This document shows, in pieces, positions 5,346-22,787 of a stretch of 64,000 bases of DNA. The position numbers and the translations under genes were made by a program. Each line of letters opens with the position of its first letter. The first letter of the stretch is position 1. Location: the NCBI RefSeq assembly GCF_046105845.1, contig NZ_CP151004.1; one strand, given 5' to 3'. Below the pieces are notes generated by a model. The model saw only the letters and a program-made list of their open reading frames with translations. It made no database searches and was not told the DNA's origin. Origin of the DNA: Escherichia coli (GTDB taxonomy: Bacteria; Pseudomonadota; Gammaproteobacteria; Enterobacterales; Enterobacteriaceae).

Positions 5346-5409
5346 TGCTTCAGGGCCCCAGTAAAGGGGCCCTGCTATCAATTTGTCATTTGTATTACGC
5401 GAAAATTAT

Positions 5410-6390
5410 ATGAACGCAATAATATCGCCCGATTATTACTATGTTCTTACCGTTGCTGGTCAGTCTAATGCCATGGCGTATGGCGAAGGACTGCCATTAC
5501 CGGACAGGGAAGATGCGCCTCATTCCAGAATTAAACAATTAGCGAGATTTGCGCATACGCATCCCGGAGGCCCGTCATGTCACTTTAACGACATTATTCC
5601 ACTGACTCACTGCCCACACGATGTTCAGGATATGCAGGGTTATCACCATCCTCTGGCAACGAATCATCAAACACAGTACGGCACCGTTGGCCAGGCACTG
5701 CATATTGCACGGAAATTACTGCCCTTTATTCCTGATAACGCAGGGGTTCTCATCGTTCCGTGTTGCCGTGGCGGATCGGCTTTTACCGCGGGCAGCGAAG
5801 GGACATATTCAGAACGGCACGGAGCCAGCCATGATGCTTGTCGTTGGGGAACGGATACTCCGCTATACCAGGATTTAGTCAGCAGAACGCGAGCCGCACT
5901 GGCAAAAAATCCGCAGAACAAATTCCTCGGCGTATGCTGGATGCAAGGCGAATTTGACTTAATGACCAGTGACTACGCGTCACACCCTCAACACTTTAAT
6001 CATATGGTTGAAGCCTTTCGTAGGGAGCTAAAACAATACCATTCTCAGCTTAATAATATTACTGACGCACCGTGGTTTTGCGGCGATACCACCTGGTACT
6101 GGAAAGAAAATTTCCCTCATGCGTATGAAGCTATTTATGGCAATTATCAAAATAATGTTTTAGCCAATATTATTTTCGTCGACTTCCAGCAACAAGGTGC
6201 AAGAGGACTGACGAACGCGCCTGATGAAGATCCAGACGATTTAAGCACGGGATATTACGGTTCAGCGTACCGGTCACCGGAGAACTGGACGACGGTACTG
6301 CGAAGCAGTCATTTCAGCGCGGCAGCCCGTCGGGGGATTATTTCTGACAGGTTTGTAGAAGCAATTTTGCAGTTTTGGCGCGAAAGGTGA
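5410..6390 (+). CDS. nanS: 9-O-acetyl-N-acetylneuraminate esterase NanS (326 aa)
   Basis: Start at MNAIISPDYYYVLTVAGQSNA with GQSN esterase motif; synteny with nanC and nanM. Confidence 0.88.
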   Translation: MNAIISPDYYYVLTVAGQSNAMAYGEGLPLPDREDAPHSRIKQLARFAHTHPGGPSCHFNDIIPLTHCPHDVQDMQGYHHPLATNHQTQYGTVGQALHIARKLLPFIPDNAGVLIVPCCRGGSAFTAGSEGTYSERHGASHDACRWGTDTPLYQDLVSRTRAALAKNPQNKFLGVCWMQGEFDLMTSDYASHPQHFNHMVEAFRRELKQYHSQLNNITDAPWFCGDTTWYWKENFPHAYEAIYGNYQNNVLANIIFVDFQQQGARGLTNAPDEDPDDLSTGYYGSAYRSPENWTTVLRSSHFSAAARRGIISDRFVEAILQFWRER

Positions 6391-6601
6391 GCGTTCATTA
6401 ATTTGATTTATTTGCATCCATTAGCGCTTTTAACTGCTCCGGCGTAAACGGTGGTTTGCGTCGGTGCAGCATCGCATGGCAATTAGGGCACACAGGAAGT
6501 AAAAAAACAAATGAGATCAAGGTAATATATCTTCACTTGCAGGCTTGAACAGCAGAAAATTTGCGAGCATGATCGCAATTATTTCACTGCCAGGGATATC
6601 A

Positions 6602-7474
6602 ATGGCTTCCAGTAAATCGCTACAGCAGGCAATTGCCAACATAAAAATCTGGCACAAGGGTGAACAGCGCGCGCCGCATAAGCCATTGTTATTGCTATAC
6701 GTATTAGCGGGATACCTGCATGGACATCCGCGCCTTTTCGATTATGGCTCGGAAATCTACGAACCTCTGCACAGTTTACTGGAACGTTTTGGGCCACAGC
6801 GTTCACAGTACCGACCTGATATGCCGTTCTGGCGATTACAAGGCGACGGATTCTGGCAATTACACAATGCCGAGCTTTGCTCAACAGCAGGGAGCAGCCG
6901 ACAACCGCCAGTGAAGGAACTGAACGAATACCACGTTGCAGGCGGTTTCGATGAACAGCACTACGCCCTGGTAACCGGCAATAAAAAACTCATCAATACT
7001 CTGGCGCAACAGATACTCGAAGCGCACTTCACCGAGAGTATTCAGGAAGAAATTGCTGACGAGCTGGGTTTTGATCTCCAGCAAATCCGTAAACAGCGCG
7101 ACCCGTTATTTCGCAAAAATGTATTACGCGCTTATAACTACCAGTGCGCGATATGTGGCTTTAATATGCGCCACGACGACACCACCGTCGCGCTTGAAGC
7201 GGCGCATATAAAATGGAAACAGCACGGCGGTCCTTGTGAAATTCCTAATGGCCTGGCGCTTTGCGCAATTCACCATAAAGCCTTTGATAAAGGATCGATT
7301 GGCCTGGATGAAAATATGCGGGTACTGGTCTCGGATGCGGTAAACGGCGGAGGGATCGTTGAGAAACTATTCTGGGATTTTGACGGGAAAACTATTGCGT
7401 TACCACAGGTGCGTAAAAATTACCCTTTTGAGGGGTTTGTAGAGTGGCATCGGAAAGAGGTTTTTAGGGGGTGA
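6602..7474 (+). CDS. HNH-endonuclease-domain protein with an uncharacterised N-terminal domain (about 290 aa)
   Basis: C-terminal CxxC...HIKW...NGLALCAIHH HNH-like motif; start chosen at ATG 6602 with an AGGGA RBS (the ORF track begins at TTG 6545). Confidence 0.65.
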   Translation: MASSKSLQQAIANIKIWHKGEQRAPHKPLLLLYVLAGYLHGHPRLFDYGSEIYEPLHSLLERFGPQRSQYRPDMPFWRLQGDGFWQLHNAELCSTAGSSRQPPVKELNEYHVAGGFDEQHYALVTGNKKLINTLAQQILEAHFTESIQEEIADELGFDLQQIRKQRDPLFRKNVLRAYNYQCAICGFNMRHDDTTVALEAAHIKWKQHGGPCEIPNGLALCAIHHKAFDKGSIGLDENMRVLVSDAVNGGGIVEKLFWDFDGKTIALPQVRKNYPFEGFVEWHRKEVFRG

Positions 7475-7784
7475 GGTAATACTTATTTTGCTGATTTAAC
7501 GTCTCTATCTGATTCAATTCGGCATCATGAACAGCCATGATATGCTTAATATGGGGCGAAGAAATTAGACCGTTATGATTGGTTTAGATTTCCGTTATTA
7601 CTTGCATTCGCTTTAGTTCCTAAAAGCCCCTGCCGTTAATGCCAGGCGCATTACGCAAAGGAGAATGATTAGTAAACAATAAGATTGAAAATCAGGAAGG
7701 CGACTCGCAATAAATCTGAAAGTCGCTTTCACATTGTTAAAATATATCCCTTACCACTCCTGTGTTGTGAACTGTTCATCACAC

Positions 7785-10700
7785 TTATAGCTGACGTTGA
7801 TCCAGACTGCTATATATCGCCTTTATTTCATTTTTTACGCCTTCGCCACGGTACACCAAAGACGTATCGTATCGTTGATATTTATCTTCTCGCGCAGCGC
7901 TGAACCAGTTAAAAGATCCAACGCACAACAACTCTTCATCCCTAATCACAATTTTGCTGTGAACGCGATTCACCAATTTTGTAGCAATGCCCATATTATT
8001 GAGCTTTTCGACTGCATCATTTAGAAGATGCAGTTTCTCCTGGCGCTTATCATCATCGATATGCGCAATATTGCAGTTTTTATCCGTTACCACGGTAATA
8101 TCAATACCTCGGGAGCGGGCCAGAGCCATTGACGTCAGAAACCCCGTTTGCTCCACTTTTTGCCAGGATAACCAGGGGGAAATAATCGTGATCTTCTGTT
8201 GAGCTGCGGCCAGAGCATTATTCAAGAATTCATCATGCTGCTCCACACCATGCAACGTTGAAATATGTGTCTGTGCGGAAATTAAATCCTGTCGTTTCTG
8301 AAACTCAAATTGCAACGCATTATTATCTGAAGCAAACAGAAATTTTGCCAATAACCCTCGTGGCGAAGATGCGGGCTGCATCTCAATAAGGTCCATATCG
8401 CCAAAGACCAGAAAACTATCCTTAGCGCGTGAGACAGCAACATTGAGGATACTGCTGTTGCTATCAAGAAACCTGCCATCTTCATGTTTTGAGTAGACTG
8501 GGGAAAAGAGAACAATCGCCCTTTCCGCACCCTGCAAGGAGTGCACAGTCCCCACTGTCAGTGAGCCCTCTTCGTCTTTGTCATTAATCTCCAGCTTACG
8601 CAATGACGTTTTGATGGCATTAACCTGCGCCGAAAATGGCGTCACAACACCAACAACTTTGTACAGAGGTTCCCCGTAATGGCGCTCTATATCATCCTTA
8701 TGTGTCGCCAGCCATGCTGCTATTGTTTCAGCTTCAAGAGGGTTATAACGGCTCCCCCCATTTGGCTTCATGCCTCGGCCATCAATATGCAGATATCCCA
8801 TTGCGGGAAAAATCGTCCCTTTTTCCATCCCTCTTTTAGGCTGCAACTTACCGTTATAGCAAAGTGAGTTACAGTAGCCGATGATGTTATTGAAACAGCG
8901 ACGATGCTCATACAGATACATTCCGCGCTCGAACTTGGGATCATACTGGTAGCGGGAGTTGAACTGGGCAACCTGCATTACGCTGCCAGATGCTGCACTT
9001 TTTCCAGACCTACACACATGGGAATATGTATTTATTAACTCTTCCTGAGTGCCACCAGAAAGAATATTCTCCTCAAGCATATTGCCCATATCAGTAACGG
9101 GTAGACAATTCCAGATTGGAGCTATTTGCTCCGTATCGCCAATCACCAGTGCTTTCTTCGCCAATGCAAAAGAGGCCGCAGCAACCTCCGGGAGTACCTG
9201 CCCTGCTTCATCGACAATCAGTAAATCGGCAAAGTTATATAAATAATTATTATCCGATGTTCTGTCCCCACCAAAAGATTTTCTCCTGTTCATATGGTAA
9301 GGCAACATGTAGCAGGTCATTACCACACAAGGAGTAAGTTTCATTCTTCTTAGCCAACGAGCCTCGGCGATAGTTGTCCCGGTAATTCCTTTTTCTTTTT
9401 GCAGGTTATCAATTGCCGCCATATCCATCAGCCAGCGACCTTCCCAATAATGAGTCGCTAACAAGAACGCTGGAAAACGAATCTGAGTATCGGCAAGCTC
9501 GTCCGCTCCGGCGAGGTTCAGCTCATCGTCTCCCCTGTAGCCCAGAGCATAAGTCAACCCGCGCCATTGTTTTGCTGCTTCCATTTCGCTTCGGGCTATG
9601 TCCTGCGCAAAGTTGATATTCTGTTGGCACGCCGCCTGCTCTTGTTGCGCTTTAGCGATCAAACTATCGATAAATTTATCAATATCTTCGGAACAATTTC
9701 CCTGGAACGCTGTCATTCTTGCGCCGAACGTAGAGTCCAGGAAGAGGTTAATCTGGTAATGGCGTTTAGCACGAACAGCAGGGAGCCATGACAAAAATGC
9801 ATACATAAGCGACTCATCGGCACGGTATTGCTGCCACTGCTTTTTACCTCTGGCTAAAAGTGAAATTTCGTTGCCAATATTGAGAAGAAGTGTGTTTTTG
9901 TCCTGAAGATACTGGTCGAGATTCTCACTGATGACTCGCTGTTCATGGCGGATATCATTGAGTCTGCGCCATGCAGGTTCGATTTGCTGAAGTTGCATAA
10001 CCTGTGAAGTTAAACGTTCATGCAAAAGCGTCACTACATGCTCTGGCGAATTGCACTCTCCAGCTCCAAACGCCGCCTCCGCTTTTTCAAGGTAAAAGGC
10101 CCGGGCTTTTTCCAGATATTCCAGGGATTCAACGCGGTTAAAAAAATCTTCAGTCTGGTATTTCTTCGCTGCCTCAACCTGACGGCTTTTAGACGGAAAA
10201 TAAGCGCCATAGCTTATTACTTCCGGCAACCAACGCCCAGACATTACGCCAAAACCAGTAGAGAAATCTTTTCCAAAGGCTTCAATAATATTGGTGACGG
10301 CCTGATTGTTAGTCGATGTGGCAATAATTACAGGAGGTTCAGTTTGATTAAGTGCGGCTCTTGTCCATTCGGTGGCAATAATAGAAAGCACCAGCGTAGT
10401 TTTACCCGTTCCCGGAGGACCGTTGACAGCGAGCATATCACCCTGCTGTTGAGTCAGATAATGGCTCAGGGCATCGCGCTGCGCCACTGCCAGCGGAAAC
10501 TTATCGCCGGAATGCCCCAGACGTTCGCAGAACATCGCATTCTTAGCGAGAAGTGGCTCCACTGGAGCCATTTCGTTTGAGGCAAAACGCGTTAATAGCG
10601 GAACCTTAACCTGGCTCATCAGAAGATGGTCATACATAGGCAGGATATGAACGCTGGCCCCTACATGCTGGCTAGCTTTAACAATATAACCGTATCCAGC

Positions 10701-11300
10701 CCGTTCGTATGGCTCAGATGTAGCGACCCAATTTCCAGCGACGTTTCTTAAAAGGTTATCTGACTGTTGTAGATAATTTTGCCAATGCTGACGATACCTG
10801 GCATGGCGTTCCGCTTTCTCTTCGTCAGTTTCTTCGTAATGTTCTGGTTCATCTTCATTAATGGTGGCTGTGTTATGCGTGGTTTTGTATTTGTCATATT
10901 GCGCCAACTCACCAATAGAAAAATGACCGGAAGGGAGAGGTTCAAGCAGATCGCGGGGAATAGTGGCTGAAGCGGCAGGAAACAAAAAACCTTCCCTATT
11001 CAGAAGAGCGGAGGTAACCAGTGGCGTGATAATTGCGGGTGCACCTGCCATTTGCTCTTTGCCATGCTTTACTATGCGGTTCCACACTTGGGGCCGTAAC
11101 ACGACTTCAACGGTTTTTACCGACTCCCCTTCACCGTCAAAAAATGCCCGAATAGTCTCGTCATCCAACTGCCCTGCGGTGATATTTATCCATCGAATGA
11201 ATGAATCTGTATCTTTACGTGAAAACGTTCCTTTACCAGATTCGGCGTCAGCTAAGGAGTTGCGCCAGTATGAAGTGAATCCCAATGTATTGCTGTCCAT
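7785..11300 (-). CDS. SF1 (Upf1-like) helicase fused to a C-terminal PLD-family HKD nuclease; Mokosh type II-like architecture
   Basis: Walker A GPPGTGKT (about 10397-10421), Walker B LIVDEAGQ, helicase motif [13 protein letters not shown]-terminal HSKIVIRD...GSFNW (HxKxxxxD...GSxN, near 7960); start taken at MDSNTLGF (11300). Confidence 0.8.
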
Positions 11301-11592
11301 TTTCCATTCCGTGACATAATAGAAATCATTGATTTCATTGATGTAAATATTACTTATGATTAAACATTGTCCACGATGCGAGCACGATCGCAATAAATAT
11401 TGTGCCTGGAGGATGGATTAGATTTTCTGAAAGAGCCGAATCCTTAATAGATAAGCGCAAACATACTTGGTTCGGTATTCTTAAGGGAATTAATATGGAT
11501 TGAACCAGGTGGAAAAAACAGCGGAAAAGATTTGTGTAGCGCGGATTTCAGGCATAAAAAAAGACCTCAGTTGAGGTCTATTTACATACTTT

Positions 11593-11610
11593 TGGTGCCG
11601 AAGGCCGGAC
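11593..11610. repeat. 18-bp direct repeat of the leuX 3' end; distal att-like boundary of the leuX island
   Basis: TGGTGCCGAAGGCCGGAC is identical to the reverse-complemented 3' end of the tRNA at 22703-22720. Confidence 0.7.
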
Positions 11611-11776
11611 CCGAATTTCACACCTAATAGACTGATATCAATATTGTTTATAAACAGGAATGAATAGTTATACCCGAACTTGTACCCACACGTTAAAATC
11701 CGTACAAAAAAATAGACATTGCAAGTGGGTATAAAGCCATACCAGTAGAACACCGATTTGGCTGTCAAAGCAAGAC

Positions 11777-13352
<1,576 letters not shown>

Positions 13353-13648
13353 TTTATTGATCTCAGGCTCACTCTAGCCATGGATAAAGAGCTTCATGAT
13401 CTAAGCTGACCTGCGGCGAACCTATTCTGCTAGCTGTAACTTTAGAGCGGTGCTCTCGGCGGAAACCATCGGCATGTGTACGCAAGAAAATAGCTGATTT
13501 GCTGTATACTTTGGCTATCACTACGCCAACATTCTCTGCGTATTCAAAAATCTGCCTGACAAAGTTCAGTTTTGTACTGTTTACATGACTCGATGGTTGT
13601 TGATGCTGGTTTTGTCATGTGAACGATAGATAGATGTAAGGCTACTTC

Positions 13649-13685
13649 TAGTCACATGTTCACTTGTGACTATGTAAGCTTACAT
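13649..13685. promoter_or_regulatory. Two adjacent perfect palindromes upstream of the methyltransferase operon (candidate operator)
   Basis: TAGTCACA-N8-TGTGACTA (13649-13672), immediately followed by the 14-bp palindrome ATGTAAGCTTACAT (13672-13685); about 245 bp upstream of the operon start. Confidence 0.3.
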
Positions 13686-13927
13686 ATCCCAGTCAGAGAC
13701 AGCTAATTGAAAAAGAGATATCATCATCAGCAATAGAAGTACAGAGATTGAGAGGCTTTATGAGATCCATTGATGTCACGAGCAATATACTAAATCTGTA
13801 AATTAACACCTTTGTGTTGCATGCTAATGAATTGCCCTTTAATGCAAACAAGTCAGTAGACGCCACAAAGAAAAAGCATGTAAATCTCCATTAAAACATA
13901 TAGATAGAAAGTTAAAAACGAGATAAC

Positions 13928-15718
13928 GTGGAATCGATTACCAAACTTTACCAGACCCCGCTGCCATCTACCCGTACTGGCCCTTTGTATAATGCGTTCT
14001 CATATCCAACAAAGATTTCACCAGAAGCTATAGCGGTTTACATTGCTACGCACACCGAGCCCGGTGCAACAGTGTTAGACGCATTTGCTGGTAGTGGTAC
14101 CACAGGCTTAGCCACTCTGCTCTGTGACCGCCCTACACTCGAAATGAAGCGAATGGCGGAAAGCCTCGGCGCATCGCCAAAGTGGGGACCACGTAATGCA
14201 CAACTTTTTGACATTGGAACATTAGGGTCATTCGTATCTCAGACCATGTGCAATCCTCCTGATCCTGACGAATTTGCAGATGCAGTGAAGGAGCTATGTA
14301 AACAAGCTGAGTTACAATTGGGTTGGTTATACAGTATTAAAGATGCCAATGGCCAAGTAGGCATGCTCCGCCATGCTATTTGGTCTGATGTACTAATCTG
14401 CCCTAACTGTAATACTGAGACCTCACTTTGGGATGCCAGTGTGAAAACTAATCCCATCAAAATGGCTGATTCTTTCATTTGTAAGGGTTGCCAGAAGCTC
14501 GTATCTATTGAAGCTTGTGAAAGAGCCACAGAGACAATCTCTGATGTTTTCGGAAGTACACAGTGCACCAAAAAACGAGTGTTAGCTCGCGTGCATGGAC
14601 GTTGCGGAACAACAAAGTGGCAGAGGCCTCCAACTGATGAAGACTATGAGATTTTGGCTCGCATTGCCGAAATGCAGCCTCCAACATCAGCCCCAAACGT
14701 TGAAATTGAATGGGGAGAACTAAGACGCTCAGGCTATCATTTTGGGATAGATAAGCTCCATCATTTCTATACAAAGCGTAATTTCATTGCGATGGCTTTA
14801 CTAATGGAGCTAGTCAATAACTTTAATGAAAGCGTTCGAGAGGCCTTGCGGCTTCTTGTCCTTAGCTACAATGCGAGCCATTCGACACTCATGACTCGTG
14901 TAGTGCTAAAAAAAGGACAAAATGACTTTGTACTTACGGGCGCTCAAAGTGGCGTGCTCTACATCAGCGGATTTCCAGTTGAAAAAAATCTTATAGAGGG
15001 TATTCGTCGCAAATCTAATTCGTTCATAAACTCGTTCCGGCTTTTATACGGTAGTCAAAGTCAGGTAACTGTTCATAATGTTAGCAGTGAAACTATGCCA
15101 CTCAAGGACAATTCCGTGGATTACGCTTTCACTGACCCTCCTTTCGGCGATTATATCCCATACGCTGAGCTCAATCAGCTCAATGAGCTTTGGCTAGGGC
15201 GTTCCACTGATCGTAAACGTGAAGTCATTGTGAGCCCTTCTCAAGCTAAGGGAGTGAAAGAATACGGCAGTATGATGGGTACAGTATTCAAAGAAATGTC
15301 TAGGGTACTGAAGCATGACGCATTAGCTACCGTAGTATTTCACTCCGCACATTCGGAGATATGGAGAGCTCTAGTTCAAGCTTATACCGAAGCAGGATTC
15401 GCAGTGGAAGCAACAAGCGTACTTGATAAAATTCAGGCAAGTTTTAAACAAGTAGTTTCGAATGTTTCTGTTAAGGGTGACCCTCTATTATTGTTATCTA
15501 AGCGCAGCCAAGAACGTTCAGAGTCTAAGACTTGTGATTTAATCGCCGCTGAGATAATCAATAATGCTAAAAATGATTTGAAACCCGATCCACAGCGTCT
15601 CTATTCACAATTTGTGGGAAGATGTCTCGAGCTGGGCAGCAACGTTACTATGGATGCAAAAACCTTTTATGCACTTGCTCAAACCAACGGTTTATGTGTT
15701 AAAGGAACCAATACGTGA
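13928..15718 (+). CDS. DNA methyltransferase-like protein (N4/N6 beta-class-like core with permuted motif order and a Cys4 zinc-ribbon insert), 596 aa
   Basis: SAM motif I VLDAFAGSGTTG at residues 48-60, preceded by a YPTK context; CPNC...CKGC cysteine cluster; motif IV FTDPPFGDY at residues 401-409 (about 15134); GTG start; stop overlaps the next gene. Confidence 0.8.
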   Translation: MESITKLYQTPLPSTRTGPLYNAFSYPTKISPEAIAVYIATHTEPGATVLDAFAGSGTTGLATLLCDRPTLEMKRMAESLGASPKWGPRNAQLFDIGTLGSFVSQTMCNPPDPDEFADAVKELCKQAELQLGWLYSIKDANGQVGMLRHAIWSDVLICPNCNTETSLWDASVKTNPIKMADSFICKGCQKLVSIEACERATETISDVFGSTQCTKKRVLARVHGRCGTTKWQRPPTDEDYEILARIAEMQPPTSAPNVEIEWGELRRSGYHFGIDKLHHFYTKRNFIAMALLMELVNNFNESVREALRLLVLSYNASHSTLMTRVVLKKGQNDFVLTGAQSGVLYISGFPVEKNLIEGIRRKSNSFINSFRLLYGSQSQVTVHNVSSETMPLKDNSVDYAFTDPPFGDYIPYAELNQLNELWLGRSTDRKREVIVSPSQAKGVKEYGSMMGTVFKEMSRVLKHDALATVVFHSAHSEIWRALVQAYTEAGFAVEATSVLDKIQASFKQVVSNVSVKGDPLLLLSKRSQERSESKTCDLIAAEIINNAKNDLKPDPQRLYSQFVGRCLELGSNVTMDAKTFYALAQTNGLCVKGTNT

Positions 15719-17763
15719 TGAGTAAGCATGATGATAATCATATCGAGATTAGCTGCCCTATAGACTTTGAACGGCGAAAACGGCTGGGGCAGTACTTCAC
15801 GGGTACCGGCCTTGGTCGTTTGCTTGCAGCCCTTGCTCAAGCCGAAAAGGCTGACAGCATCATAGATCCTATGGTGGGATCTGGAGACCTACTTGCCTCT
15901 TGTATAGAGATTGATGCTAAACCTGCTGTAATGGCAGGTATCGAGATAGATATGAAAGTACATAAGGCTTGTTCAAAGCGATTGCCACATGCACATTGTT
16001 TACTTGGTAATGCTTTCGATCCCAGGGTTATTGCACAGTTGCCCGTAAAATCATGGGATTTAGTAATCGCAAATCCCCCTTATGTTCGCTATCAATCCCT
16101 TCGGGATAAAGATCACAATTCAAGCGCATTTCCTTCCGCAATGCAAATTCGAAAAATGTTGCTTCGATCGTTAGAGTTGATAGATACACTCGATAAAGAA
16201 GATAAGCGACTTTTTGCCGAACTCATCCACGGTTATTCTGGTCTATCCGATTTGGCAGTGCCTGCATGGATTCTCTGCGCTGCTTTGGTTGAGAAAGGAG
16301 GACGTTTAGCTCTAATTGTACCTGAGTCGTGGCTTAGCCGAGACTATGCAACAATAGTGAATTACCTTCTGTTTAGATGGTTCGACATAGAATTTGTTGT
16401 AGAGGACGAACATGCGTCATGGTTTGAAGAAGCTCAGATCAAGACAACATTGATCATCGCCAAGAGAATTCAACGTCGCTCTTCCAAACTCTCAATTCCT
16501 GCTGAATATCACTATTGTCACATAGCACTTGCAGCCGCAGCAGCTAACAACAGAAGTCCTATAGGTGGTATTAACTTACCGGTAAAAGAGGCTGAAAAGC
16601 TCTTCGCAAAACAGGCTCAAATCTGGCTCCGAGATGCGTCTAAACATGAAACGGGCCTTGTTAGCACTCGTCCAATTTCTCTAAATCACTCTTGCAAAAA
16701 TATGATCGCGTCAGCTTCCCGCCAAAAGTGGTTTGCCACTATGAGTAAAGCTGATGATGTTTTCAGCAACGAAGACTATATACCTCATGAGATCCACGAA
16801 TGGATTAAAAGGAATACACTTACCCCTTCGTTCGATAGTTTTGAATCTATAGGCATCGCTGTTGGCCAAGGACTTAGGACAGGTGCTAATAATTTTTTTT
16901 ACGCTAGCGGAGAATTAAAAGACGGACACGTCGAGCTATCTTTTTTAGGCCCGTTATCAGGATTGAAAGCTAGAAGCTCAATCAACATCGTTAAGCCCAC
17001 ATTACGCCGCCAATCAGAGCTGCCTAATGGTTTTGTAATTTCTCCTTCTGATGCCAAAAGTTGGACGTTAGACTTAAGAAACTATGTACTGCCCGAAGAT
17101 ATTGGCGATAATGATATATCTTGCACATCATATGAGCTTATGCCAAATGAACTTGTTAAGGTCGTTAGAGCTGCACAAGAAGCAAACTTTGGCACAAGCG
17201 AGAGGCCGCTAAAAATTTGGGAGCTGACGGCGGTCGCACCTAATATCCGACCTGCAACACCTCAGACTCCCGCTCGTCATTGGTATATGTTGCCAAATTT
17301 TACACCTCGCCATCAACCAGATGTATTCTTAGCACGTGTAAATACGCTAACCCCTAAGGCTTATCTAAATCAAGATAGAGCATGCCTTATCGATGCTAAT
17401 TTTTCGACAATGTGGTTATTAGATGATTCAAAATGGTCAGCAACTACAATCCTCGCTTTTATGAATTCTACATGGGTTCAAGCTGTAATCGAGTGTCTGG
17501 GGTCGGTTATGGGCGGCGGGGCGTTGAAAGTTGAGGCCACTCACCTACGCAAAATTCCTGTTCCAAAGTTTAATGATGAGCAAAGAAAAATTCTTTCCGA
17601 TCTTGGAAAAAAACTTGTAAAAGGCACACAGGAAAAACTAGTTATTTTAGAGATAGATAGGATAATAGCTGAAGCTTTGGGCTGTAATGACATGAATATT
17701 GATGAACTTAAACAGATTACGCATTTAGGTCAAACTCGGCGGGCTAAACACAAAGGAAGGTAG
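15715..17763 (+). CDS. N6-adenine DNA methyltransferase, gamma-class (Eco57I/TaqI-like) with a C-terminal TaqI_C-like domain, about 682 aa
   Basis: GQYFTG (motif X), DPMVGSGDLL (motif I), NPPYV (motif IV, about 16072), GLRTGANNFFY (TaqI_C-like GxxTGxNxxF); start overlaps the upstream stop (GTGATGA). Confidence 0.8.
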   Translation: MMSKHDDNHIEISCPIDFERRKRLGQYFTGTGLGRLLAALAQAEKADSIIDPMVGSGDLLASCIEIDAKPAVMAGIEIDMKVHKACSKRLPHAHCLLGNAFDPRVIAQLPVKSWDLVIANPPYVRYQSLRDKDHNSSAFPSAMQIRKMLLRSLELIDTLDKEDKRLFAELIHGYSGLSDLAVPAWILCAALVEKGGRLALIVPESWLSRDYATIVNYLLFRWFDIEFVVEDEHASWFEEAQIKTTLIIAKRIQRRSSKLSIPAEYHYCHIALAAAAANNRSPIGGINLPVKEAEKLFAKQAQIWLRDASKHETGLVSTRPISLNHSCKNMIASASRQKWFATMSKADDVFSNEDYIPHEIHEWIKRNTLTPSFDSFESIGIAVGQGLRTGANNFFYASGELKDGHVELSFLGPLSGLKARSSINIVKPTLRRQSELPNGFVISPSDAKSWTLDLRNYVLPEDIGDNDISCTSYELMPNELVKVVRAAQEANFGTSERPLKIWELTAVAPNIRPATPQTPARHWYMLPNFTPRHQPDVFLARVNTLTPKAYLNQDRACLIDANFSTMWLLDDSKWSATTILAFMNSTWVQAVIECLGSVMGGGALKVEATHLRKIPVPKFNDEQRKILSDLGKKLVKGTQEKLVILEIDRIIAEALGCNDMNIDELKQITHLGQTRRAKHKGR

Positions 17764-17772
17764 CAGAATTTT

Positions 17773-20700
17773 ATGGGAACAATTTACAATGAAACTCAAG
17801 GCTTAGCATTTCTGAAAGAAGCTGTAGCACTTATGGCTGATGGAAAAGCTGAGGATGTTCTGCGACATGCGCTATCTGCCAAACTGCCGCTCATGTTCCC
17901 TAAACAGCCATGGTGGATAAAAGCACATGTTACAGGTACAGAGTCGCTTGCTAAATTTCATGAATTTGGTTCGAAAAAGTATGGATTCGTGGATGTATTA
18001 GTAGGTTCAACTGTTATTGAATATGAAAGAAATTTACAAACACAGGGTTCATTCACACATGGGCTCCATCAGTTAAAACAATATTGTGCTTCTCTTCTTA
18101 ACAGCCACACGCCTTCAGATCTTTTAGTTGGGGTACTATCAGACACGATTCGCTGGTATGCCTTTCGTGTTTCAGACGTAAAAGATATTTCGGCTGTTCC
18201 CGGTGCGACAAGCTACGGCCCTGAACATATTGATTTAGCTGAAATTGAATCCTATGACCTGTCGGCAGCTGGGAGCATTGAGGCCAAAAAGCTTGGTAAA
18301 TTCTTGGTTCGATATCTGGGCCGAGAAGGTGGACGAACTTTAGCAGCATCCATGCTAGCAAAGGATTTAGGCTTTGAAAGCTCATTTTGCGAAACACATC
18401 TCCAGCAAATAGAAAAACTAGTTGATGTAGCTTTTGTAAGCGATCCATCCTACGCTGGGTTAATCACCAAACTCTGGATGGATTTTGTTTCTTACTTGGG
18501 TGGTGAATCTGCTACAGGTAAATTTGATAAAACTTCATATATTGGAGAATTGTACATATTAACGTTAGCCAAGCTTATTTGCGCTAACGTACTTAGCGGT
18601 AAAGGACTTGTTAGCGACGATACGGAACTATTATCAATTCTAGATGGTACATTTTTCAAAGCGAAAGGACTTCCGAATCTTGTAGAATACGACTACTTCG
18701 GTTGGCTTAATAATAGCCCTTATGTTTCCCCCCTTGCCAAAGTAGCACGCGACATTCAGAACGATCTATTAGCTTATGACTTTGAGTCTGCTCCAGCTGA
18801 AGACCTATTTGGTTCTCTAATGGCTCAGCTTGCAACACGCGCTCAACGTCTTCTCCTCGGTCAAGAATGGACACCAGCATGGCTAGCTGCGAAAGTAGTA
18901 AATGAAGCCATCAACAAACTGCCATTAAACCAGCAACCAAGATTCATCGATATGTGTTGCGGTTCAGGCACTATAGTTGTGGAGACAGTAAAAGCGGTCC
19001 AACAACGGTTACTTGCAGCAGGCTCTAAGCCAGGAGAACCTGCTGCGTTAAGCTCATTAGCCACTGCAATTACGGCTTTCGATATAGATCCGCTCGCCGT
19101 AATGTTAGCAAAAGTGGGCTGGGTACTGGCTTGCAAGGACTGGCTTATACCTGGCCATGAAGCCTTAATTCCTGTGTATCACGCAGACTCACTATTTGCC
19201 AATACTCCGGTCACCAAGGTGTTTAGTACAACAGGCGAAGAGCAACGCAAGCTAAAGCTTGACACAGAAGAGGTTGACCTACCACAATTTTTGGTCGAAT
19301 CGAAACATCAATCTCTATTTGATGCACTTTTATCACGTGGTTATGATATGGCCATGAGTAGTGCTGCAGAAGCCAAATCAACGTTAAATAATGATGATAT
19401 TGAGATAATGGTTGATTCGGTAGCTTTGCATTTAGACTGTGTGCTGTCAGCTGAAGAACGCACATCTACATTATTCTTTTGCTGCCAACTGTTACGCGCA
19501 CTTGAAGCATTGCAACGTGCTGGTCGAAACGGCATTTGGTCATTCGTTCTGAAAAATAGCTTTCGCCCAGCCTTAGTGGCGGGCCGTTTTAATGGAATTG
19601 TTACTAACCCACCATGGCTATCGCTAAGCCGCATTGGTAGCAACCCTTATCGTAATGCGTTAAAAGCAAAAGCGGATAAATATGGAATTAAGCCATCTGG
19701 CGCTTCACACCTGCATGTTGAAATCGCGACGACCTTCTTGCTACATGCTATCGATCATTATCTTACATCAGATGGGGTTGTTGCATGTATCTTACCCGAA
19801 ACAGTTCTGAACGGTTCTCATCATGAACCATTCCGGTCATCCAAGTATCTATCAGCTAATAGTCCAGCAGCATTCAATCCACAAGAAATTTGGAAAGTGG
19901 CCAGCCAAACATTTAAAAATGAGGCCATTGTTCTATTCGGTTATAAATCTAAGCCAACATTTCCAGTAGTAAGCCTCTTGGGCCGAAAAGTTAGCAGTTC
20001 ATTTGAAGAATTCTGCGAGTTTCACATCGTTAATTCTGGAGGGAAGTCTGCTTGGGCATTAGACCGCCCTGTAACAGAAGTGTTGAAAGTGGAAACTAAA
20101 GATTCAATTGGACCTCTGTTTAGACAAGGAGCCGATATAATGCCCCGCGGAATTATTTTTCATGATATCAAAAAAAACGGAATATCATGGGATCTTGGTC
20201 CCATTCATCCCGGCTCATCACTATATTTTTTGCGTTCTGAGGGTAAAATTCTTAAGGACTTTTCTTTAAGCGCCTGTGGGGTGAACGATGGAGTGATATA
20301 TGATGTGCTTCTTTCAAAACATTTAGCCCCTTGGGAATTATCTGTAGGTTCAAAGGCCTTATTACCATTCCAGCGTAGTGACGATAAGTGGCTCGCTCGT
20401 ACTGGATCAAATATTGCAGCCCTAGGAGCTTCTACTGCCTCAGCAATCAAAGCTATGTTGACGGCAACCGGTGAAAACATAGAAGATTTCTTTTTACGAA
20501 TCGATACTGATCGCAAGAAATTAACCACCCAGAGTTGGAGCTCAGAAGACTGGGTTGTATTCGGGTCTGCTGGAGGTAAATGGCCATGCGCCGCTTACAC
20601 ACGCGGAGAGCAGATTCCCTGCTCTAAAACGATAATAGACCAAACGCTCTATTGGGGCGTAGTCAAAAGTGAGGATGAAGCGATATACATTACTGCACTA

Positions 20701-21018
20701 ATTAATAGTCCTGCGGTAATGAATGTGATTGTATCCCATCAACCTAGAGGATCCTTTGGGGAACGACACATACACAAGTTGGCTTTCGACCGGACACCTT
20801 CTTATGACCAAACCTCAGCTAAACATCTCGACGTTGTTCGCTCGGCGAAGGATTTGATGAATCAGTGGGCTAATCGTCGCATGGAAGCTGACATATCTCC
20901 CATGCTATCTCCTAGTGTTCACTTAATTACTCGCAGAAAAAAGATTCGTAATGCATTAGAGTCATTGCCTGCATGGGAGCCGTACGTGGCAGCCACTCAA
21001 GCTATATATGAAATTTAA
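17773..21018 (+). CDS. Large multidomain protein (1081 aa): HsdR/MmeI-like N-terminal domain, central gamma-class SAM-methyltransferase core, large C-terminal domain; Type IIG/IIL-like
   Basis: N-terminal D74...E83-x-E85...Q100xxxY104 pattern; GQEWTPAW (motif X-like); FIDMCCGSGT (motif I, about 18943); DIDPLAVMLAKV; NPPW (motif IV, about 19606); RBS AAGGAAGG upstream of ATG 17773. Confidence 0.8.
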   Translation: MGTIYNETQGLAFLKEAVALMADGKAEDVLRHALSAKLPLMFPKQPWWIKAHVTGTESLAKFHEFGSKKYGFVDVLVGSTVIEYERNLQTQGSFTHGLHQLKQYCASLLNSHTPSDLLVGVLSDTIRWYAFRVSDVKDISAVPGATSYGPEHIDLAEIESYDLSAAGSIEAKKLGKFLVRYLGREGGRTLAASMLAKDLGFESSFCETHLQQIEKLVDVAFVSDPSYAGLITKLWMDFVSYLGGESATGKFDKTSYIGELYILTLAKLICANVLSGKGLVSDDTELLSILDGTFFKAKGLPNLVEYDYFGWLNNSPYVSPLAKVARDIQNDLLAYDFESAPAEDLFGSLMAQLATRAQRLLLGQEWTPAWLAAKVVNEAINKLPLNQQPRFIDMCCGSGTIVVETVKAVQQRLLAAGSKPGEPAALSSLATAITAFDIDPLAVMLAKVGWVLACKDWLIPGHEALIPVYHADSLFANTPVTKVFSTTGEEQRKLKLDTEEVDLPQFLVESKHQSLFDALLSRGYDMAMSSAAEAKSTLNNDDIEIMVDSVALHLDCVLSAEERTSTLFFCCQLLRALEALQRAGRNGIWSFVLKNSFRPALVAGRFNGIVTNPPWLSLSRIGSNPYRNALKAKADKYGIKPSGASHLHVEIATTFLLHAIDHYLTSDGVVACILPETVLNGSHHEPFRSSKYLSANSPAAFNPQEIWKVASQTFKNEAIVLFGYKSKPTFPVVSLLGRKVSSSFEEFCEFHIVNSGGKSAWALDRPVTEVLKVETKDSIGPLFRQGADIMPRGIIFHDIKKNGISWDLGPIHPGSSLYFLRSEGKILKDFSLSACGVNDGVIYDVLLSKHLAPWELSVGSKALLPFQRSDDKWLARTGSNIAALGASTASAIKAMLTATGENIEDFFLRIDTDRKKLTTQSWSSEDWVVFGSAGGKWPCAAYTRGEQIPCSKTIIDQTLYWGVVKSEDEAIYITALINSPAVMNVIVSHQPRGSFGERHIHKLAFDRTPSYDQTSAKHLDVVRSAKDLMNQWANRRMEADISPMLSPSVHLITRRKKIRNALESLPAWEPYVAATQAIYEI

Positions 21019-21053
21019 TATAATATTTAGCTTGAAATTTTTTTAAATATTAA

Positions 21054-21088
21054 ATGATGGGAAATTTGTATAATTACCCCATCATTTT
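21054..21088 (+). terminator. Putative rho-independent terminator of the methyltransferase operon
   Basis: Stem ATGATGGG / CCCATCAT with a 16-nt loop, followed by TTTT, 36 bp after the gene-3 stop. Confidence 0.4.
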
Positions 21089-21266
21089 CTCTATAAGTTA
21101 ACTTAATGAAATTCTATTATCTAATAATGTAATGGCATCTCTAATGCTTGTCAGCTTATCCTAATTGAGTAGAGGTTTATGGTATAGACTTGTAGTAACA
21201 GGATAAGATTAATACACGATTGTTATAATTAGTTTGAACAAATCATTATAAGAATCATCAATTTAC

Positions 21267-22512
21267 CTACCCAAACTCAAACGGACTTACTCCTTTCTCC
21301 CGATTCGCATCAAGGTAATCAGCCCACCACTGCAGCATCAACCTCCTCTCCCCCAGATGCTCCGCCTTATGGATGTAGGCAGCCCTAGCAGAGCTACGCT
21401 CCTGATGGCTCATCTGCCGCGACACCGCATTCCTCGACCACAATCCCGATTCAATCAATGAGCTACACGCCATCGTTCTGAAACCATGTCCACATACTTC
21501 CGTTTTCGTGTCATAGCCCATCACTCGCAGAGCCTTGTTAACCGTATTCTCACTCATCGGCTTACGCGGATCGTGATTACCAACGGAGATCAGCTCTCGG
21601 TTTCCATTCATGCTTTTGATCTTTTCCAAAATAGCTAAGGCCTGACGCGACAAGGGAACAAGATGTGGAGTCCTCATCTTCGAACCACGTTGAGAATGCT
21701 TAACACCTTCCAGCGGTTCACGCTCTCCCGGAATCGTCCACATAGCCGTTTTAAAAATCCACTTCTGACCAGCGAGCAAAACGCAACTCGCTTGAACGGA
21801 TGAAAACCAGCAAAGTGAGTTCAACCGCCAGTCGTGTTAACGGCCTGCCAGAATAGTGATCAATGCGGTGAAGTAATTCAGTAATACGGTTAAGTTCCAG
21901 AGCTGCACGGTGCTGTCGTTTTGCCGTAGCAACCGCACCGGCAATCTCTTGTGCTGGGTTATAATCGATTAAGCCGCTCTGAACGGCAAACCGCATAATC
22001 GCAGTAGTTCGCTGTTGCAAACGAGCCGCAACTTCTAGTCGTCCGGAAGATTCCACCGCTTTGACGGGTACAAGAAGATCCCACGTCTTCAATTCAGCAA
22101 TGTTCCGCTTACCGATAGTAGTAAAGAGATTATCTTCGAAACTTTTCAATACACGAGCGCTATGCGATGCAGACCACTTCTGATTGCTGGCGTGCCAGTC
22201 TCTGGCAACCACTTCAAACGTTATCGCCTCTTGATCCTGCTCTATTTTAACTGCTTTCTTGTTCTCACTGGGAGCGACGCCATTAGCTAACAATTTACGG
22301 GCTTCATCCCGGCGTGTCCGGGCATCTGCCAGCGACTCTTGAGGGTATTTCCCCAGCGCCAGTATCTTCTCGTTGCCACCAAAGCGGTAACGTAGACTCC
22401 AGTATTTTGAATCGTTAGGGTGAACCAGCAACACCATGCCTTCGCCATCAGCCAGCTTATAGACTTTTATTTCAGGCTGGGCAGCACGAACCTTCACATA
22501 ACTAAGAGCCAT
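21267..22512 (-). pseudogene. P4-type (tyrosine recombinase) integrase next to leuX, reading frame split by a frameshift
   Basis: Two overlapping ORFs (22512-21751 and 21824-21267) together give an integrase of about 415 aa (N-terminal MALSYVKVRAAQ..., C-terminal catalytic region GHGFRTM...); overlap at 21751-21824. Confidence 0.7.
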
Positions 22513-22702
22513 GATGAGTGTCCTTTCAAAGGTTCTGTGTGGTACAAACATTATCGAACCGGGATATACCCACAGTTGTACCCACATCAGTAAGTTGATG
22601 TAGATTGAATTAGGTTGAGTGAAAAAGTGAGGAAGGCATTGCGGATACTGGATTTCAGACACAAAAAAAGCCGCCCTTGAGCGACTCGATTTGCATACGA
22701 TG

Positions 22703-22787
22703 TGGTGCCGAAGGCCGGACTCGAACCGGCACGTATTTCTACGGTTGATTTTGAATCAACTGCGTCTACCGATTTCGCCACTTCGGC
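22703..22787 (-). tRNA. leuX: tRNA-Leu (CAA), leuX
   Basis: Reverse complement reads GCCGAAGTGGCGAAATCGGTAGACGCAGTTGATTCAAAATCAACCGTAGAAATACGTGCCGGTTCGAGTCCGGCCTTCGGCACCA: cloverleaf with long variable arm, CAA anticodon, CCA end. Confidence 0.95.

Follow-up and report, generated by a model that had tools for sequence, protein, structure and literature searches.

The stretch of Escherichia coli DNA analysed here (the window; 64,000 nucleotides) very probably encodes a stand-alone anti-phage defence protein of the Mokosh type II family, MkoC/YjhR, that acts by the mechanism proposed below. The gene lies on the minus strand, where the open reading frame list gives a single open frame at 7785..11393. 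Translation from the ATG at 11300 yields the mkoC/yjhR coding sequence (7785..11300), which specifies 1171 amino acids plus a stop and a product with a computed mass of 131,978 Da. The start and the length of the product agree with those of its homologues, which share the N-terminus and the length of 1171 residues, and the identical protein (100%) is present in RefSeq as 'helicase YjhR' (WP_033555724.1) from strain N1420. An earlier sequence-only reading had placed one protein of about 1170 residues at 7785-11300, and this is what we found. The upstream region that is private to mkoC (11301..11592, minus strand) has a Shine-Dalgarno-like sequence, GGAATGG, ahead of the ATG and a weak sigma-70-like match with its -35 element at 11373 and its -10 element ending at 11346. 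A convincing promoter was not found in 11301..11592: shuffled sequence is expected to give a match as good as this one, which is a candidate only.

The protein joins a helicase to a nuclease in one chain, and Pfam finds AAA_11 (residues 273-344), AAA_12 (795-969) and PLDc_2 (1028-1141) in that order; all of the segments that follow are encoded on the minus strand. The chain begins with a family-specific domain (residues 1-265; 10506..11300) marked by the invariant signatures YWRNSLAD and IPRDLLEP and presumed to be sensory or regulatory in role. The N-terminal half of the helicase RecA1 domain (residues 266-370; 10191..10505) carries motif Ia and the Walker A motif GPPGTGKT (residues 294-301; 10398-10421), and is interrupted by an insertion within RecA1 (residues 371-653; 9342..10190) that is all-helical in the AlphaFold model (pLDDT mostly > 85), with long helices at 419-457, 461-494, 507-529, 537-585 and 596-629. 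In the family alignment, conservation within the protein is lowest in this insertion. The rest of RecA1 and RecA2 (residues 654-975; 8376..9341) are identified by Pfam AAA_12 (E=3.4e-20), by an Upf1-like fold and by their motifs: Walker B DEAGQ (residues 697-701; 9198-9212), motif III GDTEQ, motif V HSLQGAE (8523-8543, in the segment VHSLQGAER at residues 919-927) and motif VI NVAVSRA (8424-8444). Walker A and Walker B are separated by 395 residues, about 280 of them in the helical insertion (371-653), close to the 400-residue insertion that had been estimated from the letters. The C-terminal PLD-family nuclease domain (residues 1021-1171; 7788..8240) matches Pfam PLDc_2 (E=3.6e-10) and PLDc (E=6.8e-5) and, in part, the PADLOC MkoB and DrmC profiles. 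It has a single copy of the HKD motif (residues 1114-1131; 7908-7961), in which the active site is intact and fits HxK(x)4D(x)6GSxN. Every helicase and HKD motif quoted in the sequence-only reading was recovered.

Across 64 homologues with 28-75% identity the helicase motifs are near-invariant, and H1114, K1116, D1121, G1128, S1129 and N1131 of the nuclease are invariant or nearly so. The protein is predicted to be catalytically competent because both sets of motifs are intact and conserved in this way. The AlphaFold model (pLDDT 90, pTM 0.85) shows contiguous, folded domains, and a Foldseek search places senataxin/Sen1, Upf1, Aquarius, IGHMBP2, DNA2, ZNFX1 and nsp13 as the top neighbours in the PDB, with probability 1.0 and E values down to 9e-17 against Upf1-like helicases. 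On this high-confidence model, the helicase part is predicted to adopt the Upf1-like SF1B fold, in agreement with the initial assignment, and with its ATP-binding site intact it answers to the description of a COG1112/Upf1-like SF1 helicase. A housekeeping or conjugative SF1 helicase was considered and rejected: the RecD and RecD2 profile scores lie far below their cut-offs (24 bits against 310 and 20.5 against 500), the UvrD Pfam match has E=0.22, and the UvrD/Rep, RecD/RecD2 and TraI families are absent from the top 50 fold matches.

Assignment to Mokosh type II, also anticipated from the sequence, is carried by the PADLOC MkoC profile PDLC03924 (E=0, 1471.6 bits), which aligns end to end (residues 1-1169 with profile positions 1-1135 of 1136). 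It is carried too by WP_000344089.1, which shows 63% identity and 78% positives with two gaps over 1171 amino acids. The first 399 residues of that protein match 'SG150 Mokosh type II' of E. coli 5-366-08_S1_C1, a system listed as verified in Table S2 of 10.1101/2022.05.11.491447. The window protein and EcMokosh II/SG150 (the type of WP_000344089.1, from PCN033) are colinear, both 1171 residues long, with the same domain order, identical helicase and HKD motifs and shared N-terminal signatures; the reported mass of EcMokosh II is 132 kDa, and N994-A995-L996 of the window protein falls at the A995/L996 truncation point used for it (10.1101/2025.07.10.664194). Identity to the verified homologue is 58% in the N-terminal domain, 52% in the helical insertion and 72-82% in the RecA cores. 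The two genes differ in location and abundance: the SG150-type gene is found elsewhere on the chromosome, with a type I R-M/CP4-like region as its neighbour and not between nanS and leuX, and about 143 of 5426 complete genomes have it, whereas 12 have an intact allele at the yjhR locus.

Mokosh type I (the MkoA kinase-helicase with the MkoB HTH-PLD protein) also combines a PLD nuclease with an Upf1-like helicase core that is homologous to this one, and its profiles do find their counterparts in the window protein, MkoA at residues ~690-990 and MkoB at 1003-1139. However, type I has a Ser/Thr kinase and a separate PLD gene, whereas the window protein has its nuclease fused to its helicase and carries an N-terminal domain and a helical insertion that are distinct from type I. 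Membership of type I was rejected: Pfam finds no kinase domain, MkoA covers only the C-terminal part of the helicase and the PLD domain is fused. The helicase fold and the single-HKD chemistry are also shared with eukaryotic proteins, namely Upf1, senataxin/Sen1, IGHMBP2 and MOV10L1 with PLD6/Zucchini, and MOV10L1-PLD6 likewise pairs such a helicase with a PLD nuclease. The sequence-only reading had named MOV10 and Zucchini as counterparts; Zucchini/PLD6 stands, but the helicase in the published analogy is MOV10L1 (Cury et al.). Identity to the eukaryotic Upf1-like helicases is only 11-14%, and the window protein lacks the CH domain and the Upf1-type 1B/1C domains, in place of which it has the insertion of about 280 residues. 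PLD6/Zucchini, in contrast to the fused nuclease of the window protein, is a separate, membrane-anchored protein.

As stated in the sequence-only reading, K-12 has only a pseudogene at this position. Beside nanS it retains yjhR, a frameshifted 3' fragment that lacks the N-terminus: some 1240 nucleotides with one frameshift, the 3' third of mkoC, in which homology stops inside the gene at window position 9010. The 338-amino-acid YjhR (UniProt-style) belongs to the same family and includes motifs IV-VI together with the PLD domain. The description of the window gene as the intact version of K-12 yjhR was right as to its integrity and its locus; as to descent it needs amendment, for the K-12 remnant shares 97.8% identity with the intact allele of 2017-02-2CC and only 90-93% with the window. 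On these identities the K-12 remnant comes from the sister allele lineage, and the window gene is a cousin allele of the intact gene behind it and not that gene itself. Among 5426 complete E. coli genomes, 12 have an intact copy at the yjhR locus and about 1700 have the remnant alone, a distribution which suggests that the gene is often dispensable or costly. Breakpoints of the truncated alleles lie at query positions 1226 and 1100-1103. Between the window gene and the sister intact E. coli allele, dN/dS is 0.13 and is low in each domain; such a value between two intact lineages points to a gene that is still under selection.

On one side of the gene is nanS (5383-6390) and on the other the distal repeat of the leuX island. 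That repeat, an exact 17-bp copy of the 3' end of leuX (TCCGGCCTTCGGCACCA; 11593..11609, minus strand), has an expected number of 0 by chance and never arose in shuffled controls; the leuX tRNA-Leu(CAA) gene itself, the integration site of the island, was located by ARAGORN at 22703..22787 on the minus strand. The present island thus occupies 11593-22787, while mkoC ends at 11300. Homology with a strain that has a different island, a P4-like element at leuX, runs to the repeat and ends at window position 11613; past this point different strains have different islands. These boundaries confirm the original placement outside the island, and they rule out mkoC as cargo of the present leuX island. 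No older repeat was found between nanS and mkoC, and the leuX repeat was not found in the 17-kb K-12 locus. Directly downstream of the leuX repeat is a terminator-like hairpin (AGACCTCAACTGAGGTCT followed by T7; 11562..11579, minus strand) that would insulate mkoC from read-through from the island.

The leuX locus is known as defence 'hotspot 37' (PMC12707154), and mkoC has three defence-related neighbours there: a phosphorothioate-dependent HNH restriction endonuclease (6602-7474), which adjoins mkoC both here and in N1420, the remnant of an Mrr-like endonuclease (11777-12013) that was destroyed by an IS element, and an R-M island. The Mrr-like neighbour recurs, in that the fragment in the window is 91% identical to the endonuclease directly downstream of mkoC in PCN033. 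The genes around mkoC differ among PCN033, 2017-02-2CC, the window, Serratia and two metagenomic contexts, a small sample, and its five unrelated genomic settings have no neighbour in common, which speaks for a gene that acts alone. Homologues of MkoC were found on plasmids of many genera.

Mokosh type II was defined as one gene with an N-terminal helicase and a C-terminal PLD domain; what was cloned and verified was a lone gene, and mutants of the Mokosh ATP site or PLD site lose defence (Millman et al., 10.1101/2022.05.11.491447). EcMokosh II is a 132-kDa monomer in solution. The purified protein cleaves only single-stranded DNA (M13, SECphi17) and nicks plasmid, in a reaction that depends on the PLD site and is independent of the Walker motif, and the monomer is active in vitro at 1 uM; in cells it defends only against the ssDNA phage SECphi17, one of 11 phages (10.1101/2025.07.10.664194). 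By analogy with this 63%-identical homologue, we propose that the Upf1-like SF1B helicase of the window protein would load on single-stranded nucleic acid that an invader exposes, for instance the genome of an ssDNA phage or an intermediate of replication, and, as its family membership suggests, would spend ATP to translocate or to license the response, while the C-terminal PLD domain would cut the strand through HxK(x)4D(x)6GSxN. PLD nucleases work by phosphohistidine chemistry. With one HKD motif per chain and a monomeric homologue, a complete PLD active site would need two chains, and we infer that their meeting on the substrate may be the licensing step; the activity of the monomeric homologue in vitro counts against this step. 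What is sensed is most likely set by the N-terminal domain and the helical insertion, because they are the family-specific and most variable parts of the protein. The window protein is 37% diverged from the tested one, and most strongly in these two regions, so the range of targets may differ or be nil.

The same family assignment would hold if the target were RNA or RNA/DNA hybrids, with phage transcripts or R-loops as the substrate and the PLD domain cleaving RNA in the manner of Zucchini/PLD6-MOV10L1 in the piRNA pathway. An RNA target was the first hypothesis of Millman et al. (10.1101/2022.05.11.491447), Cury et al. note structural similarity to MOV10L1 and PLD6, and the nearest solved folds (Upf1, senataxin, IGHMBP2, Aquarius) are RNA or RNA/DNA helicases. 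The substrate panel used in vitro in 2025 contained no RNA (10.1101/2025.07.10.664194), so the physiological target may be other than ssDNA. However, Upf1-like helicases, including DNA2 and IGHMBP2, act on ssDNA too, and the homologue cuts ssDNA in an HKD-dependent fashion and gives protection that is specific to an ssDNA phage; we regard an RNA target as rather improbable.

The endonuclease neighbours raise the question of whether mkoC is part of a multi-gene system with the HNH enzyme or with the Mrr-like enzyme, given that the former adjoins it in two strains and the latter recurs beside the PCN033 gene. Yet the Mrr-like gene lies across the boundary repeat, in another gene order and disrupted by the IS element, and the MkoC proteins are 63% identical where the endonucleases are 91% identical, which argues that they were not inherited together. 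Moreover, the sister intact allele is accompanied by a truncated phosphorothioate-dependent endonuclease, distant MkoC homologues stand among unrelated genes and the cloned, verified system consisted of one gene, making a multi-gene system very hard to sustain. It is scarcely credible that mkoC has no role in defence, whether as a relic in decay or as a helicase-nuclease of the DNA2 or RecD kind that serves housekeeping or repair. Most E. coli do have a truncated remnant or nothing, the RefSeq name is simply 'helicase YjhR' and DNA2 is among the neighbours in fold and in sequence, but the frame of 1171 codons is intact with all catalytic residues conserved, the low dN/dS is that of a selected gene, the RecD and RecD2 models fall far under their cut-offs and a close homologue has demonstrated anti-phage activity. 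Its patchy distribution, its presence on plasmids of many genera and its location at a defence hotspot are also unlike those of a housekeeping gene.

The reading of mkoC as a stand-alone Mokosh type II gene can be extended, in a form that we consider unlikely as a whole. MkoC from the yjhR locus might guard against ssDNA invaders, by which we mean microviruses, filamentous phages, incoming conjugative strands and rolling-circle replicons, with its specificity set by two fast-evolving parts, the N-terminal domain and the helical stalk, while substrate-induced pairing of two single-HKD chains would license its activity. The N-terminal domain, helicase and stalk might more broadly form a chassis, a modular sensor to which alternative effectors could be joined, an idea suggested by the observation that relatives without the PLD domain adjoin an ART-PolyVal ADP-ribosyltransferase gene. 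Were this guarding role to be true, a fitness cost such as interference with conjugation or self-targeting would explain why the gene is truncated almost universally in E. coli.

As a discovery the gene is of little weight, since the family, its architecture, its role in defence and the link between yjhR and Mokosh are already published (a 2022 preprint equates yjhR with fused Mokosh) and defence-finder pipelines would label it automatically. What the window offers is an allele, intact and maintained by selection, of a gene that is familiar in work with K-12 only as a pseudogene. Since it differs by 37% from the sole Mokosh type II protein to have been studied biochemically, it can usefully serve as a natural variant for mapping the regions that determine target specificity. 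The locus also shows that, beyond the island bounded by the integrase, the flanking part of the leuX hotspot has defence genes of its own that have decayed in most E. coli.

The gene at window positions 7785-11300, on the minus strand, is a genuine mkoC encoding the Mokosh type II protein MkoC. The sequence-only reading interpreted it correctly, but the finding is already known, because the family and its architecture were published in 2022 (10.1101/2022.05.11.491447), a preprint from that year identifies yjhR as a fused form of Mokosh, RefSeq names the protein and PADLOC detects it at maximal significance. The ORF list contains a single long minus-strand open frame, 7785..11393, in which we take the ATG at 11300 as the start because homologues of equal length share its opening residues, [15 protein letters not shown]. 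Translation from that codon gives 1171 residues and a stop, exactly the coordinates and the one ORF of about 1170 aa that had been proposed. The product has a computed mass of 131,978 Da and the Pfam domains AAA_11, AAA_12 and PLDc_2. A motif search located Walker A GPPGTGKT (residues 294-301), DEAGQ (697-701), HSLQGAE (920-926), NVAVSRA (953-959) and one copy of the PLD motif [18 protein letters not shown] (1114-1131), and recovered every motif quoted in the earlier reading.

The type II assignment was put to both PADLOC and the published protein, and was borne out by each. The PADLOC MkoC profile aligned along its whole length with E=0 and 1471.6 bits, its positions 1-1135 of 1136 pairing with residues 1-1169, while the type I profiles MkoA and MkoB matched only the C-terminal part of the helicase and the PLD part. 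The verified 'Mokosh type II' construct, SG150, is a 1171-aa protein from E. coli 5-366-08_S1_C1 (Millman et al. preprint supplement, 10.1101/2022.05.11.491447), and window MkoC matches the 399 N-terminal residues stored for it at 66% identity. A query with the SG150 DNA fragment located this gene in complete genomes, among them that of PCN033, whose MkoC shares 63% identity and 78% positives with the window protein over the full length (2 gaps in 1171 residues) and keeps all the catalytic motifs. An identical protein in strain N1420, WP_033555724.1, is annotated 'helicase YjhR' in RefSeq.

The family comprises 1099 clusters (50% identity) at E<=1e-30, many of them colinear along the full length at 28-48% identity, with nearer relatives (69-75%) throughout the Enterobacterales. 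Across a 64-sequence alignment the helicase motifs, the PLD residues H1114, K1116, D1121, G1128, S1129 and N1131, and the N-terminal signatures YWRNSLAD and IPRDLLEP show no or almost no variation. The AlphaFold2 model built on 64 aligned sequences is confident (mean pLDDT 90, pTM 0.85) and predicts an N-terminal mixed alpha/beta domain (residues 1-265), a RecA1 domain interrupted by an all-helical insertion of about 280 residues (371-653), RecA2, a short linker and a C-terminal PLD fold. The literature holds as yet no solved structure or detailed mechanism for MkoC, a gap that is family-wide and not specific to this locus. Some relatives of about 990-1005 aa align to MkoC residues 1-996 only (L012 3322-6982 and L010 143-5726, in loci of such relatives) and therefore lack the PLD domain. 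One is preceded, in the same orientation, by a gene for an ART-PolyVal ADP-ribosyltransferase, and another is followed by an unannotated 683-aa gene, neighbours that hint at a helicase chassis pairing with alternative effectors.

In the window, the fim switch, nanC, nanM and nanS (ending at 6390) are followed by an intact gene, convergent with mkoC, for a phosphorothioated-DNA-binding restriction endonuclease of the SBD-HNH type (6602-7474, plus strand); its NCBIfam NF045808 score of 438 bits exceeds the cut-off of 180. A 3'-end remnant of another HNH endonuclease gene lies at about 6398-6503 (minus strand); N1420 keeps this 651-bp gene in full between nanS and the phosphorothioate (PT)-dependent endonuclease gene, of which about 571 bp (L001 14137-14707) are missing from the window. 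The tRNA-Leu(CAA) gene leuX lies at 22703-22787 (minus strand). Its 3' end is repeated exactly over 17 bp at 11593-11609, in the same orientation, where chance predicts no such match, and a terminator-like hairpin comes next when reading along the minus strand. The stretch from this repeat to leuX contains an Mrr-like fragment, an IS3-family element, genes for two DNA methyltransferases and for a type IIG-like restriction-methylase, and a broken integrase gene. In strain 2017-02-2CC a P4-like satellite takes the place of this island at leuX, yet the homology of that strain with the window spans mkoC and ends at 11613, at the repeat; mkoC therefore belongs to the conserved flank, outside the integrase-bounded island, where the sequence-only reading had placed it. 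A search for an older repeat between nanS and mkoC showed that none exists there.

Published work lists the leuX region as defence 'hotspot 37' of E. coli (PMC12707154). The cargo of the leuX island here is a three-gene block (13928-21018, plus strand) that is probably an R-M-type defence system: its products are a 596-aa PglX-like DNA methyltransferase, a 682-aa N6 methylase and the 1081-aa type IIG-like restriction-methylase, the last a 'hypothetical protein' in RefSeq. The leuX-adjacent tyrosine integrase gene (21267-22662, minus strand) is split into two overlapping ORFs of 185 and 303 aa, in agreement with its 'frameshifted' annotation in N1420, so the island is probably immobile. The IS3-family element (12131-13344, plus strand; orfA and orfB frames) is inserted in the Mrr-like gene, and at the position corresponding to 12174-12687 N1420 has a further insertion, an IS110-family one of some 2 kb.

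Matches to mkoC were found by megablast in 1729 of 5426 complete E. coli genomes, but at least 80% of the gene is present in only 12, with identity >=99.9% in five of them and about 94% in the other seven. Most of the others keep only query positions 1-1226 or 1-1100, the 3' third. K-12 yjhR is indeed a pseudogene, as the sequence-only reading had it: it is annotated as frameshifted with its N-terminus missing, its translation covers the last ~408 codons with one frameshift, and homology to the window ends at 9010, within mkoC. The leuX repeat was not found in the 17-kb K-12 locus, a pattern that fits a deletion taking the 5' two-thirds of yjhR along with the island boundary. The view of the window gene as K-12's own intact version needs refining. 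The remnant in K-12 shares 97.8% identity with the ~94% intact allele of 2017-02-2CC but only 90-93% with the window allele, and K-12 and 2017-02-2CC have in common a deletion in the PT-dependent endonuclease gene (window 6869-7537 absent, a remnant of about 250 bp left); by sequence comparison, these features place window mkoC as a sister allele. Between the window and 2017-02-2CC lineages dN/dS is 0.13, and low in every domain, so both intact lineages have been maintained by selection. Along the gene (7785-11300 against L004 9001-12516) dS rises from 0.10 in the N-terminal domain through 0.19 in the helicase to 0.46 in the PLD domain, which suggests a mosaic or recombinant history.

Purifying selection and an intact frame contradict the view of mkoC as a relic or housekeeping gene, as do its patchy distribution and its presence on plasmids of many genera. 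That mkoC works in a multi-gene system with a neighbouring nuclease finds support in one observation: the Mrr-like fragment at 11777-12013 shares 91% identity with the endonuclease adjoining the verified-type MkoC in PCN033. However, gene order differs between the two, the fragment is broken by an IS element and lies across the island boundary from mkoC, and distant MkoC homologues have no neighbours in common. The fragment itself (minus strand) is a 78-aa C-terminal piece, PADLOC candidate PDC-S02, cut off by the IS3-family element; its PCN033 counterpart (L003 15970-16959) is directly downstream of MkoC, and this pair is 91% identical whereas the two MkoCs are only 63% identical. The neighbourhood may reflect a recurrent pairing or a chance association among the cargo of defence islands.

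Mutations in the ATP site or the PLD site abolish Mokosh defence (Millman et al., 10.1101/2022.05.11.491447). EcMokosh II is a monomer of about 132 kDa that protects against only one of 11 phages, the ssDNA phage SECphi17; in vitro, ssDNA is the only DNA that it cuts, plasmid is nicked, and M13 DNA cleavage depends on the nuclease site and not on the Walker motifs (10.1101/2025.07.10.664194). Its truncation point, A995/L996 (10.1101/2025.07.10.664194), corresponds to N994-A995-L996 in PCN033 MkoC and window MkoC alike. The steps demonstrated so far come from homologues, and by analogy the helicase module of window MkoC would sense or track single-stranded nucleic acid, in an ATP-dependent manner in vivo, while specificity would probably be set by the variable N-terminal domain and helical stalk. 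The PLD domain would cut the strand by phosphohistidine chemistry, which is established for PLD nucleases. One HKD motif is half of a canonical PLD active site (Nuc, Zucchini, BfiI), and because MkoC has a single motif, a complete site would probably require two chains to come together on the substrate. The main rival holds that the target is RNA or an R-loop; this was the original hypothesis, and such a target is compatible with the EcMokosh II data, the substrate panel being DNA-only.

The value that remains in this locus is that window mkoC is a diverged natural allele, with a function predicted from its homologues, and that the locus documents the decay of defence genes in the leuX hotspot's flank.
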